Origin: Escherichia coli
GTDB taxonomy: Bacteria > Pseudomonadota > Gammaproteobacteria > Enterobacterales > Enterobacteriaceae
Direction: 5' to 3' (one strand)
Assembly (NCBI RefSeq): GCF_044647545.1
Contig: NZ_CP172818.1
DNA length: 64,000 bases
This document shows, piece after piece, positions 1 through 34,619 of the stretch. The notes below the pieces were generated by a model. It made no database searches. It was not told the origin of the DNA and saw only the letters and a list, made by a program, of their open reading frames with translations. How positions within the stretch are numbered: position 1 is the stretch's first letter; every line of letters starts with the position of its first letter. Made by a program: the position numbers and the translations under genes.

Positions 1-449
<449 letters not shown>

Positions 450-454
450 CTACC

Positions 455-736
<282 letters not shown>

Positions 737-749
737 TTATCCTCTAAAA

Positions 750-3145
<2,396 letters not shown>

Positions 3146-3165
3146 TCAATCGCTCAATGACCTGA

Positions 3166-3648
<483 letters not shown>

Positions 3649-3654
3649 CCGCGC

Positions 3655-3660
3655 ATTATA
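3655..3660 (-). promoter_or_regulatory. Candidate -10 hexamer of the S10 operon promoter
   Basis: Minus strand reads TATAAT followed by a GC-rich discriminator (gcgcggg); no recognisable -35 lies upstream, where the sequence is an anomalous GC-rich tract. Confidence 0.45.
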
Positions 3661-3848
3661 CTGGGGGGGCGGGCCGCGCCGCGCGGGGGCGCTTGTTCGC
3701 CCTCTCTGCACGGCTGGTGTCCGGCAGTTCGGCCCGTCTCTGGTCGGTTTTTCTGGGTGAAAGGTGGCGGCCGCGCGATTTACGCGTGCCCGCCCCCCCC
3801 CCCTTACTCTGGTCAGGTCTTTTGTTCTATCATGGGAGTTTGGGCTAA

Positions 3849-4170
3849 TCGATTCCCCTGATCGGTTTAGCCGATGCGTTATGGGGGGCGATTATTGGTT
3901 ACGGCACATTCGCTGTCATTTACTGGGGGTATCGCATTCTGCGTCATAAAGAAGGATTAGGCTATGGTGATGTGAAGTTTCTCGCCGCCCCCTTGGTGCC
4001 TGGCATACATCCTATCGACTGGTTTTCCTTGCTGCCTTCATTGCTTGCCGAGCCGTAGTTCATTGGTCTGCTCATGAGAGGAAAAGAGTCATTAAAAAAT
4101 CTCCCGCTGCCGTTGTGGGAGCATCTTCTGCGCGAACTGACGGGTTTCGTTGTAGGCTGGGATAGTTATG
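3849..4170 (+). pseudogene. gspO: Decayed 3' remnant of a prepilin peptidase (GspO/PilD family) gene; no start codon, frameshifted
   Basis: Open frame 3849..4058 translates ...LADALWGAIIGYGTFAVIYWGYRILRHKEGLGYGDVKFLAA, containing the conserved GxGDVKxLAA motif; the expected following LGAW is encoded 2 nt out of frame after a C5 run at 3987..3991. Confidence 0.55.
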
Positions 4171-4181
4171 CTGGCAGGCCG

Positions 4182-4658
4182 TTAATCTTTAACTTTTATT
4201 TGTGATTGCAGGTAATTTTGTAGACCGATTTTACCGATGAGATCCAGCTCAGTTTCGAGCCAGTCAATATGACCTTCTTCATCGGCAAGGATCTCGATCA
4301 TCATATCACGGCTAACATAGTCATGAACGCTGTCGGCATACGCGATAGCCTCACGGAGATCCTTAGCGCCTTCCAGTTCTAATCGCAGGTCGGATTGCAG
4401 CATCTCCTCGACATCTTCACCAATCCCCAGTTTGCCTAAATCCTGTAAGTTGGGGATTCCTTCTAAAAACAAAATACGCTCGATATATTTATCAGCGTGT
4501 TTCATCTCATCGATAGATTCATGGTATTCGACGTCATTGAGACGCATCAGGCCCCAGTTTTTAAACATCCGGGCATGGAGAAAATACTGATTGATTGCGA
4601 CAAGCTCATTTCCCAATAGTTTATTGAGATAATTTATGATTTTAACATCACCTTTCAT
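4182..4658 (-). CDS. bfr: Bacterioferritin
   Basis: ORF contains [37 protein letters not shown]...; start set at the internal Met for a 158-aa product. Confidence 0.9.
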
Positions 4659-4729
4659 TTTTAGTCCCTCCGCTTCCACTATTAGAGCGTAGATGGGGCT
4701 AGCGGGATGTCAAAAAATAAGCGTGGGCT

Positions 4730-4924
4730 TCAGGCAATCTCTTTAAATTCTGGCATCTGCATCAACTCGTCCTGCATCACTTCGCGCGCGGCGCGAATGC
4801 ACTTACCGCATTGATTTCCCACAGGAATAAACTTACGCAATTGTTGGAAAGATTGCGGATGAAACTGACGTACTGCCTGGCGAATTTTTTTGTCACTTAC
4901 ACCATTACACAAACAAACGTACAT
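4730..4924 (-). CDS. bfd: Bacterioferritin-associated ferredoxin
   Basis: 64 aa ORF MYVCLCNGVSDKKIRQAVRQ... with Cys pattern of a 2Fe-2S BFD-like domain. Confidence 0.9.
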   Translation of the reverse strand: MYVCLCNGVSDKKIRQAVRQFHPQSFQQLRKFIPVGNQCGKCIRAAREVMQDELMQMPEFKEIA

Positions 4925-5034
4925 GATTGCTCCCGTTCAAATTCTGCGCAAAGTGTAAATGAGAATGGTTATGATTACAATAGCACAATTTTATTTGCGC
5001 CATAGTTCAGCGAGGAACGACAAAACGGGCAAAA

Positions 5035-5052
5035 AGGGCGCCGAAGCGCCCT
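5035..5052 (-). terminator. Rho-independent terminator at the end of the str operon (after tufA)
   Basis: GC hairpin agggcgccgaagcgccct; on the minus strand it is followed by a T-run, 30-45 nt downstream of the tufA stop. Confidence 0.7.
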
Positions 5053-5080
5053 TTTCAATTCAAAACTAATTAACGAGTAA

Positions 5081-6322
<1,242 letters not shown>

Positions 6323-6335
6323 TTAACCCTTAGGC

Positions 6336-8462
<2,127 letters not shown>

Positions 8463-16225: not shown

Positions 16226-18139
16226 ATGATTGTTTTCTCCTCGTTACAAATTCGTCGCGGCGTGCGCGTCCTGCTGGATAATGCCACCGCCACCATCAAC
16301 CCCGGGCAGAAAGTCGGCCTGGTGGGTAAAAACGGCTGTGGTAAATCTACCCTGCTGGCATTGCTGAAAAATGAAATCAGCGCCGACGGCGGCAGCTACA
16401 CCTTTCCGGGAAGCTGGCAACTGGCGTGGGTGAATCAGGAAACACCAGCGCTACCGCAAGCGGCGCTGGAATATGTCATTGACGGCGACCGTGAATATCG
16501 TCAACTGGAAGCGCAGCTACACGACGCCAACGAACGTAACGACGGGCACGCCATCGCCACTATTCATGGCAAGCTGGATGCTATTGACGCATGGAGTATT
16601 CGCTCCCGTGCCGCCAGCCTGCTGCACGGCCTCGGTTTCAGCAATGAACAACTGGAGCGCCCGGTAAGTGATTTCTCCGGTGGCTGGCGTATGCGTCTTA
16701 ACCTTGCCCAGGCGCTGATTTGCCGTTCAGACTTGCTGCTGCTCGACGAACCGACTAACCACCTCGATCTCGATGCCGTTATCTGGCTGGAAAAATGGCT
16801 GAAGAGCTATCAGGGCACGCTGATCCTGATCTCTCACGACCGCGACTTCCTCGATCCGATCGTTGATAAAATTATTCATATCGAACAACAAAGCATGTTC
16901 GAGTACACCGGCAACTACAGTTCGTTTGAAGTACAGCGCGCCACCCGTTTGGCGCAGCAACAAGCGATGTATGAAAGCCAGCAGGAACGCGTGGCGCATC
17001 TGCAAAGTTATATCGACCGTTTCCGTGCCAAAGCCACCAAAGCGAAGCAGGCCCAGAGCCGTATTAAGATGCTGGAGCGTATGGAGCTGATTGCCCCGGC
17101 GCACGTCGACAACCCGTTCCGCTTTAGCTTCCGCGCGCCGGAAAGCCTGCCTAATCCGTTATTAAAGATGGAAAAAGTCAGCGCAGGCTATGGTGATCGC
17201 ATTATTCTCGACTCGATTAAACTGAATCTGGTCCCCGGCTCGCGCATTGGTCTGCTAGGCCGCAACGGCGCGGGTAAATCGACATTAATCAAACTGTTAG
17301 CCGGTGAACTTGCGCCAGTCAGCGGTGAAATTGGTCTGGCGAAAGGGATCAAGCTCGGCTACTTCGCCCAGCATCAACTTGAATACCTGCGCGCCGACGA
17401 ATCGCCTATTCAACATCTGGCACGTTTAGCGCCGCAGGAGCTGGAACAAAAACTGCGTGATTACCTCGGCGGCTTTGGTTTCCAGGGCGATAAAGTAACC
17501 GAAGAAACGCGCCGCTTTTCCGGTGGGGAAAAAGCCCGCCTGGTGCTGGCATTAATCGTCTGGCAGCGTCCGAATCTGCTGCTGCTCGACGAACCGACTA
17601 ACCACCTTGACCTCGACATGCGTCAGGCACTCACTGAAGCATTAATCGAGTTCGAAGGCGCGCTGGTTGTCGTTTCGCACGACCGTCATTTGCTGCGTTC
17701 CACCACTGACGATCTCTACCTGGTTCACGATCGTAAAGTCGAACCGTTCGACGGCGATCTGGAAGATTATCAACAGTGGTTGAGCGACGTACAAAAGCAG
17801 GAAAACCAGGCCGACGAAGCGCCAAAAGAGAACGCGAACAGCGCCCAGGCACGTAAAGATCAGAAACGTCGGGAAGCGGAGCTGCGTGCGCAAACCCAGC
17901 CACTGCGTAAAGAGATTGCCCGTCTGGAAAAAGAGATGGAGAAGCTGAACGCGCAACTGGCGCAGGCGGAAGAGAAACTCGGCGACAGCGAACTGTACGA
18001 TCAAAGCCGTAAAGCGGAGTTGACCGCCTGCCTGCAACAGCAAGCCAGCGCCAAATCCGGCCTGGAAGAGTGCGAAATGGCGTGGCTGGAAGCCCAGGAG
18101 CAGCTTGAGCAGATGCTGCTGGAAGGCCAAAGCAACTGA
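16226..18139 (+). CDS. yheS: ABC-F family ATPase YheS (two ABC domains, no transmembrane domain)
   Basis: 637 aa ORF with two Walker A motifs (GKNGCGKST, GRNGAGKST) and two LSGGE-type signatures. Confidence 0.9.
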   Translation: MIVFSSLQIRRGVRVLLDNATATINPGQKVGLVGKNGCGKSTLLALLKNEISADGGSYTFPGSWQLAWVNQETPALPQAALEYVIDGDREYRQLEAQLHDANERNDGHAIATIHGKLDAIDAWSIRSRAASLLHGLGFSNEQLERPVSDFSGGWRMRLNLAQALICRSDLLLLDEPTNHLDLDAVIWLEKWLKSYQGTLILISHDRDFLDPIVDKIIHIEQQSMFEYTGNYSSFEVQRATRLAQQQAMYESQQERVAHLQSYIDRFRAKATKAKQAQSRIKMLERMELIAPAHVDNPFRFSFRAPESLPNPLLKMEKVSAGYGDRIILDSIKLNLVPGSRIGLLGRNGAGKSTLIKLLAGELAPVSGEIGLAKGIKLGYFAQHQLEYLRADESPIQHLARLAPQELEQKLRDYLGGFGFQGDKVTEETRRFSGGEKARLVLALIVWQRPNLLLLDEPTNHLDLDMRQALTEALIEFEGALVVVSHDRHLLRSTTDDLYLVHDRKVEPFDGDLEDYQQWLSDVQKQENQADEAPKENANSAQARKDQKRREAELRAQTQPLRKEIARLEKEMEKLNAQLAQAEEKLGDSELYDQSRKAELTACLQQQASAKSGLEECEMAWLEAQEQLEQMLLEGQSN

Positions 18140-19161
18140 TGGCGCAGATAACAACGACCGATGCCAATGAATTTAGCAGCAGTGCTGAATTCTCCCCTAT
18201 GCGCGGCTTTAGCAATTGTCATCTACAAACCATGCTGCCGCGTCTGTTCCGTCGCAAGGTGAAATTCACCCCGTACTGGCAGCGGCTGGAGTTGCCCGAC
18301 GGCGATTTTGTCGATCTCGCGTGGAGTGAAGATCCTGCACAGGCGCGGCATAAACCGCGTTTAGTCGTGTTTCACGGGCTCGAAGGCAGTCTCAATAGCC
18401 CTTACGCCCACGGTCTGGTTGAGGCGGCGCAAAAGCGTGGCTGGCTGGGCGTGGTGATGCATTTTCGCGGATGCAGCGGTGAACCAAACCGTATGAACCG
18501 CATTTACCATTCGGGCGAAACCGAAGACGCTAGCTGGTTTTTACGCTGGCTGCAACGCGAATTTGGTCATGCGCCAACGGCTGCCGTCGGCTATTCGCTC
18601 GGCGGTAATATGCTGGCCTGTTTGCTGGCAAAAGAAGGTACTGATCTCCCGATTGATGCGGCGGTGATTGTCTCTGCGCCGTTTATGCTGGAGGCCTGTA
18701 GTTACCATATGGAAAAGGGCTTTTCCCGCATTTATCAGCGTTACTTGCTGAACCTGTTAAAAGCCAATGCCGCGCGCAAGCTGGCAGCCTACCCCGGAAC
18801 ACTGCCGATTAATCTCGCGCAGTTAAAATCGGTACGTCGCATCCGTGAATTTGACGATCTCATCACCGCCAGAATTCACGGCTACGCTGACGCTATCGAC
18901 TATTATCGTCAGTGTAGCGCCATGCCGATGCTGAACCAGATCGCCAAACCGACGCTGATTATTCACGCCAAAGACGATCCGTTTATGGATCATCAGGTGA
19001 TCCCGAAACCGGAAAGTCTCCCCCCGCAGGTGGAGTATCAACTGACTGAACATGGCGGTCATGTTGGCTTTATTGGCGGTACGTTACTTCATCCGCAAAT
19101 GTGGCTGGAGTCACGCATTCCTGACTGGTTAACAACGTATCTGGAGGCGAAATCATGTTGA
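18139..19161 (+). CDS. yheT: Alpha/beta-hydrolase family protein YheT
   Basis: 340 aa ORF containing the GYSLGG nucleophile-elbow motif. Confidence 0.85.
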
Positions 19162-34554: not shown

Positions 34555-34619
34555 GTCTCTGACAGAAATTGGCTGATGCTGATTTATTGCCTGCGCCCTC
34601 GGGTTTCCGGGGTCCAGAA

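Follow-up and report, generated by a model that had tools for sequence, protein, structure and literature searches.

The stretch of Escherichia coli DNA analysed here (the window; 64,000 nucleotides in full) very probably carries a widespread short type of cassette between the str and S10 operons, one that never held chiA. On this reading, the absence of chiA and of the gsp secretion genes reflects a different cassette type rather than two deletions, and the shortfall in the length of the bfd-tufA spacer is most likely a sequence or assembly error. The short form would run, in order, through the tufA terminator, the bfd promoter, bfd, bfr, a hopD-like peptidase gene and the S10 promoter, and the form found in K-12 (gspB-A, gspC-O, bfr, bfd, chiA; ~16.6 kb) would be a deeply diverged alternative in the same slot. 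Both forms appear to be bounded by the −10 element of the S10 promoter and by the tufA terminator. Homologous recombination, acting on the near-invariant ribosomal sequences on either side, presumably swaps the two cassette forms; the sharpness of the cassette edges is the one observation that points to recombination through these flanks.

Organization of the str-S10 interval

The features of the interval are listed in Table 1. The distance between the str and S10 operons is ~1.4 kb in the window versus ~16.6 kb in K-12, and the gap between rpsJ and bfr is only 704 bp. The bfd-tufA spacer occupies positions 4925-5080 and is exactly 156 bp long, as a reading made from the sequence alone (the sequence-only reading) had given it; the hairpin of the str-operon terminator, which the same reading placed inside this spacer, was found there on the tufA strand.

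Positions 1-3661 and 34614-64000 of the window are 100% identical to E. coli FDAARGOS_497, whose annotation lists rpsJ, a "prepilin peptidase" of 155 aa, bfr, bfd and tuf in that order. The coding sequences of bfr and bfd in the window are also identical to those of FDAARGOS_497. Over a 4.2-kb test segment, identity is also 100% to a group of genomes, among them strains named ST648.

Table 1. Features of the str-S10 interval of the window, with the patches of suspect sequence
Feature	Position	Strand	Remarks
rpsJ (S10; heads the S10 operon; left conserved flank)	3166-3477	-	103 aa, 100% identical to K-12 RpsJ
S10 leader and −10 hexamer TATAAT (3655-3660)	3478-3661	-	three-way alignment; left cassette edge
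Anomalous patch	3662-3800	.	139 bp of 74% GC (TGGGGGGGCGGGCCGCGCCGCGCGGGGGCGC...) in place of 296 bp of 44% GC in the nearest genomes; suspected sequence error
hopD-like short prepilin-peptidase gene (Peptidase_A24)	3801-4178	+	located by tblastn; without start, indel-riddled
Patch in the peptidase gene	3803-4168		dispersed insertions of G/C plus small deletions; breaks the peptidase ORF
bfr (bacterioferritin)	4182-4658	-	158 aa; allele of the gsp-less haplotype
Patch before bfr	4662		one A lost 4 nt before the bfr ATG (GGAGGGACTATAAAATG to GGAGGGACTAAAAATG)
bfd (bacterioferritin-associated ferredoxin)	4730-4924	-	ORF, 64 aa; allele of the gsp-less haplotype
bfd 5′ region, kept across genera	4925-4988	-	near-invariant block in an 11-sequence alignment
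Non-conserved spacer linker	4989-5029	.	no trace of chiA; 26 nt short versus the 182-bp spacer
Patch in the linker	~5005-5029		about five small separate deletions within 50 bp, no substitutions; 26 nt lost
str-operon intrinsic terminator (predicted), after tufA	5030-5057	-	hairpin and T-run; right cassette edge
tufA (EF-Tu; ends the str operon; right conserved flank)	5081-6265	-	394 aa, 100% identical to K-12 TufA
fusA	6336-8450	-	
Patch in the yhfL/yhfS convergent intergenic region	34587-34612		~42 nt lost

Absence of chiA and the gsp genes

In RP437, a derivative of K-12, the genes are annotated in the order rpsJ-gspB-gspA-gspC..O-bfr-bfd-chiA-tuf, with a chiA gene of 2694 bp. The statement of the sequence-only reading that chiA lies between bfd and tufA in K-12 is therefore correct; K-12 does not show bfd adjoining tufA, the finding that would have overturned that reading, as chiA intervenes. 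K-12 ChiA is a protein of 897 aa with GH18 and CBM5/12 domains.

In the window, gspAB and gspC-O are lacking from the rpsJ-bfr gap, and chiA from the bfd-tufA spacer. A tblastn search of the whole 64-kb window with ChiA returned chance matches only (best E 0.16), and searches with the K-12 Gsp proteins over the same 64 kb recovered only the prepilin-peptidase fragment listed in Table 1 and the paralogue HofQ. Between rpsJ and bfr, GspA, B, C, D, E, L and M gave nothing but chance matches in tblastn. Neither an ORF nor any similarity to ChiA was found within the 156-bp spacer. Compared with the bfd-chiA and chiA-tuf spacers of K-12 for a scar of chiA, this spacer has nothing in common with them beyond the 5′ region of bfd and the terminator of tufA. 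chiA and the secretion machinery are truly absent from the window.

Conserved elements of the bfd-tufA spacer

In the cross-genus alignment, the spacer consists of two conserved modules, the terminator and the bfd 5′ region, around a variable linker. Both modules are intact in the window. On the tufA strand (5057..5030), the predicted terminator reads AAAAGGGCGC-TTCG-GCGCCCTTTTT, with 12 pairs followed by a T-run; as RNA, this is AAAAGGGCGC-UUCG-GCGCCCUUUUU, again with 12 pairs, starting 23 nt after the tufA stop codon. The hairpin is invariant across genera in the 11-sequence alignment, and the 71-nt fold that holds it has a dG of −22.7 kcal/mol, with a z of −3.7 versus shuffled sequences.

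The bfd 5′ region contains a ribosome-binding site, GGGAG (4930-4934), and a candidate bfd promoter, TTGTAA-N17-TACACT (4980..4952), which scores 8/12 and was assigned by its conservation only; a sigma-70 promoter scan of positions 4600-5300 returned none at threshold. Strong conservation across genera also extends to a Fur-box-like site, TGTAATCATAACCATTCTC (4961-4979), which agrees with the consensus at 14 of 19 positions (5 mismatches); a search of the window for the Fur-box consensus with ≤3 mismatches found no site. The roles of bfd promoter and Fur operator are thus putative ones, read from conservation. An Rfam scan of positions 3000-6500 with E values up to 1 gave no match to an RNA family. 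The spacer would end transcription of the str operon at the hairpin and then start that of bfd-bfr from a conserved promoter that looks Fur-controlled.

On the other side of the cassette, the S10 promoter would consist of the TATAAT hexamer (Table 1) and, in K-12 and FDAARGOS_497, TTGCGT 17 nt upstream. This assignment is based in part on the length of the S10 leader, which we take to be ~172 nt.

Patches of suspect sequence

Over ~63 kb, the window differs from FDAARGOS_497 by one SNP (28844), yet more than 100 indel positions are concentrated in five patches (Table 1). All conserved coding sequence is untouched by them. The GC-rich patch next to the left cassette edge removes the −35 element of the S10 promoter (TTGCGT) together with the 5′ end of the peptidase gene, and the patch in the linker accounts for a spacer of 156 bp versus 182 bp in most other chiA-less E. 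coli genomes listed. The exact spacer of the window occurs in none of 5426 complete genomes, the best match being one of 92% (HH97). The exact linker was found in none of 241 million metagenome records, which is a weak null, as the canonical linker used as a control was found only 4 times. To judge from this pattern, the 26-nt shortfall and the other patches are most likely sequence or assembly errors, or otherwise non-native sequence.

Real strain-specific mutations, e.g., decay of non-essential non-coding DNA, offer an unlikely but still arguable account of the shorter linker and the altered patches. In favour of this account, no conserved coding sequence is hit, the terminator after tufA and the promoter block of bfd are both intact, and HH97 is a case of a linker of another length. 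However, about five deletions within 50 bp without a single substitution are set against 1 SNP in 63 kb, the 139-bp patch of 74% GC removes the −35 of a ribosomal-protein promoter, and no second occurrence was seen in 5426 genomes or in metagenome contigs. Error therefore remains the preferred reading of the patches. It does not affect the main conclusion, since many independent complete genomes with identical flanks show bfd adjoining tufA; the fine-scale features of this assembly are nevertheless untrustworthy without reads.

Three smaller observations concern the same patches. The loss at 4662 shortens the spacing between the bfr ribosome-binding site and the start codon by one. The loss in the yhfL/yhfS region is deletion-only, like that in the bfd-tufA linker, and destroys a terminator hairpin (GACGCCCTCGGG...CCGAGGGCGT, then a T-run). 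E. coli HH97 (locus L005, NZ_CP116409.1, 1691-3236) has a frameshifted hopD-like pseudogene and its own linker deletion of ~31 bp; either the linker and hopD vary naturally or the region is error-prone in more than one assembly.

Cassette edges and divergence of bfr and bfd

The window is 99.9% identical to K-12 over positions 1-3661. In the three-way alignment, this identity stops exactly at 3661, i.e., at the −10 of the S10 promoter. It resumes at the tufA terminator (~5029-5030), and from 5029 rightward it amounts to 98.5% over 14.9 kb (~99.7% in the first 4.5 kb). Between these near-identical flanks, the bfr-bfd DNA shares only 79% identity with K-12, and the encoded proteins 90% (Bfr) and 88% (Bfd). 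On these sequence comparisons, bfr and bfd are themselves part of the swapped cassette. The two alleles are diverged enough to cluster as separate genes, which explains their "accessory" status in a published pan-genome (PMC11390585). The alleles compared were positions 4182-4924 of the window and 17985-18727 of the RP437 locus (L002), and their linkage with the gsp/chiA state is complete.

Recent deletions in a K-12-like ancestor, one of which took gspB through the 5′ part of gspO and a second chiA, leaving bfr-bfd in place, are a very improbable origin of the window. Two such deletions would have left bfr-bfd near-identical to K-12, and the two alleles differ as described above, between flanks of 99.9% (left) and 98.5% (right) identity. 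It is true that a prepilin-peptidase fragment adjoins bfr where K-12 has gspO, and that a deletion has been invoked in the literature for E. coli W, as a "gspO-rpsJ deletion" (PMC3032704). The short peptidase, however, is only 41% identical to K-12 GspO at the protein level (41-48% to GspO of the gsp-positive loci described below) and has its orthologue in the short gene found in Citrobacter, Silvania, Pluralibacter and Kluyvera, at 50-65% amino acid identity. The spacer aligns end to end with those of other genera and has no chiA scar, and the gene order in Salmonella is identical.

Alignment of the window with K-12, part of the check that the sequence-only reading had proposed, confirms that chiA and gsp are lacking; what it delineates is a sharply bounded, diverged cassette, not a deletion. 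That reading had supposed that the machinery and its cargo were "lost or never gained" as one. The framing as a loss is not supported, given 79% identity in bfr-bfd, 41% in the peptidase and a chiA-less, gsp-less order in Salmonella and in 37 of 51 readable Enterobacterales loci. The comparisons argue for the gsp-less state as a different, older allele rather than the gspO-rpsJ deletion of PMC3032704.

The interval in other Enterobacterales

A scan with Bfr was carried out over one genome per bacterial species. The best 80 loci, all from Enterobacterales, were retained, and K-12 proteins were mapped onto them by tblastn. These 80 loci include no Escherichia, Shigella or Salmonella (no E. albertii, E. 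fergusonii or cryptic clades), and with no Escherichia outgroup among them the polarity within the genus rests on Salmonella (PMC6735719) and on more distant genera.

Both sides of bfd-bfr were readable in 51 loci. Eighteen of them have tufA-bfd-bfr-rpsJ and nothing more, and 19 add a short peptidase gene of the hopD type, as in the window. The gsp genes are present without chiA in seven loci and together with chiA in another seven; chiA without gsp was found in none of the 51. bfd thus directly adjoins tufA in 44/51 loci, and 37 of the 51 lack both chiA and gsp. chiA occurs only with gsp, in 7/14 gsp-positive versus 0/37 gsp-less loci (Fisher p = 3e-5, phylogeny ignored). Cassettes with the secretion system apparently came first, and the cargo gene chiA joined them later. 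The loci that have gsp beside bfr but tufA adjoining bfd, with no chiA, are L016, L022, L041, L043, L072, L076 and L079, from Citrobacter, Chimaeribacter and Rahnella.

The bfd-bfr DNA of the window type is 82-88% identical to that of Citrobacter, Silvania, Phytobacter and Enterobacter, which is about the value that we estimate for vertically inherited E. coli genes. The Bfr protein is 94-98% identical to those of Phytobacter, Pluralibacter, Raoultella, Citrobacter and Enterobacter. The K-12-type bfd-bfr, among the loci retrieved, reaches no more than 82% with any species, bar one locus (L045, 98.8%), and the best true match of this allele among them is an uncultured enterobacterium MAG that has both gsp and chiA. 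Over its whole length, the spacer found in chiA-less E. coli can be aligned with those of Citrobacter, Silvania, Kluyvera and Enterobacter. For Salmonella, Brandis, Cao and Hughes (2019, PMC6735719) list "bfd, bfr, and hopD" as the insert between str and S10.

By these alignments, chiA was most likely never part of the window allele. The divergent arrival is most likely the gsp-chiA block found in K-12, and the window form is an old, widespread and ancestral-looking one. The long form is itself old within E. coli. Its chiA-gsp cassette is 96.5-97% identical between A and B2 strains, and with a difference of ~3-3.5% between these copies a lineage could have switched type by recombination, in either direction; the present lineage could have carried the long form and then converted back.

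Locus L045, from a MAG labelled Citrobacter sp. HRGM_Genome_0066, matches K-12 over gsp-bfr-bfd-chiA at 97-100% in protein and 98.8% in DNA. Its contig is probably E. coli DNA that was binned or labelled as Citrobacter. A strict co-divergence of bfr-bfd with gsp was also considered and was dropped, as the gsp-positive and gsp-negative loci of Citrobacter are equally close to the window allele.

Distribution of the two forms in E. coli

Of 5426 complete E. coli genomes, 2254-2255 (about 42%) have the window-type arrangement. Examples of the short form are O157:H7 and ST648, and of the long form ST131 and K-12. In the same 5426 genomes, chiA was found in 3163 and gspD-gspE of the K-12 system in 3134. 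The counts of chiA and of the window-type junction are complementary (3163 + 2255 = 5418 of the 5426), which means that chiA and gsp travel together in E. coli and that chiA at another site is at most very rare. Accordingly, the notion that chiA and gsp form one functional unit stands within E. coli, where their co-variation is near-perfect and they lie in one sharply bounded cassette, but not across genera, where seven gsp-positive loci are without chiA.

Relocation of chiA, or of a replacement chitinase with its T2SS, to another part of the genome is highly unlikely. The view from the window is limited to 64 kb, and a second T2SS (beta; yghJ-pppA-gspC-M) is often present at another E. coli locus (PMC3707838). 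Nevertheless, 2263/5426 genomes are without megablast-detectable chiA anywhere versus 2255 with the window-type junction, which leaves about ten possible exceptions, and the window holds no similarity to ChiA. An assembly artefact, in which the strain has chiA and the assembly collapsed or dropped it, would be in keeping with five suspicious indel-laden patches, one of them inside the spacer, but is hardly credible against more than 2250 independent complete genomes with bfd adjoining tufA, at least 10 of them with flanks 100% identical to the window, against the complementary counts, and against a bfr-bfd allele of the gsp-less type, which was not seen with chiA.

The short form as an alternative cassette type, the reading preferred here, also agrees with published surveys. 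Archer et al. (2011, PMC3032704) reported that K-12, B and Crooks have gspA-O in the gap from rpsJ to bfr, and that W and every B1 strain of their study are without these genes; according to the same paper, W also has no chitinase that could be secreted. In a pan-genome study of 2024, the gsp genes and "the linked chiA" are accessory genes of identical frequencies, and bfr and bfd co-vary with gsp and chiA and are also listed as accessory and, like them, as associated with fitness (PMC11390585). The presence-absence polymorphism of chiA and gsp is already published in outline, and is ordinary, not a fresh loss. The literature search found no survey of the distribution of T2SS-alpha and T2SS-beta.

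Comparison with known loci and significance

The str-S10 interval of Salmonella enterica (tufA-bfd-bfr-hopD-rpsJ, PMC6735719) has the same gene content and order as the window, with no gsp or chiA. The likeness is drawn from the published description (PMC6735719) and from the loci of Citrobacter, Kluyvera, Silvania and Pluralibacter. The window differs in that its hopD-like gene is not an intact ORF, having indels and no start, and in a spacer linker 26 nt shorter than that of other E. coli of this type. The T2SS-alpha/ChiA locus of K-12 (Francetic et al. 2000, as cited in PMC3032704 and PMC11390585) occupies the same slot between the same flanks and has homologous bfr, bfd and peptidase genes in the same order and orientation. 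The window is without the 13 other gsp genes and chiA, and identity in the shared genes falls to 79% (bfr-bfd, DNA) and 41% (peptidase, protein). E. coli W and the B1 strains (PMC3032704) are in the same state as the window, lacking a chitinase as well as gspA-O in the rpsJ-bfr gap, but the window is ST648-like by the identity of its flanks, not B1.

A wider picture may be drawn, which we offer tentatively and hold to be somewhat less likely than not. An ancient site of swappable cassettes would lie between the tufA terminator and the S10 promoter, with at least four states in Enterobacterales (empty, hopD, gsp, gsp and chiA), swapped whole within and between species by homologous recombination via the flanks. 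E. coli would keep a long-lived dimorphism at this site (21% in bfr-bfd), bfr and bfd, usually counted as core genes, would belong to an accessory island, and chiA would have been recruited only into cassettes with a secretion system.

The absence of chiA and gsp matters little alone, being a common, published polymorphism and an ancestral-looking state. The strain of the window is unable to secrete the ChiA chitinase, and a link between ChiA and adhesion to epithelia has been reported for E. coli associated with colitis and mastitis (PMC11390585). As the difference between strains is a replacement of the whole cassette, including bfr and bfd, association signals at this locus are not assignable to chiA alone.

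The hopD-like peptidase gene

The intact homologue in FDAARGOS_497 encodes 155 aa with a complete Peptidase_A24 domain (PF01478, E 4e-22). The window has no intact Peptidase_A24 gene of ~155 aa convergent with bfr: tblastn of the 155-aa protein recovers residues 35-155 only, at 63% identity, the GC-rich patch stands in place of the start and the first 34 codons, and the remainder has many indels. A sequence error is the probable cause of this defect. The hopD-like gene is a full-length, fast-evolving ORF in Citrobacter, Silvania, Pluralibacter and Kluyvera. No T2SS partner genes accompany the peptidase at this locus, which makes it an orphan, and the short gene beside bfr could be a relic of a much older loss of gsp.
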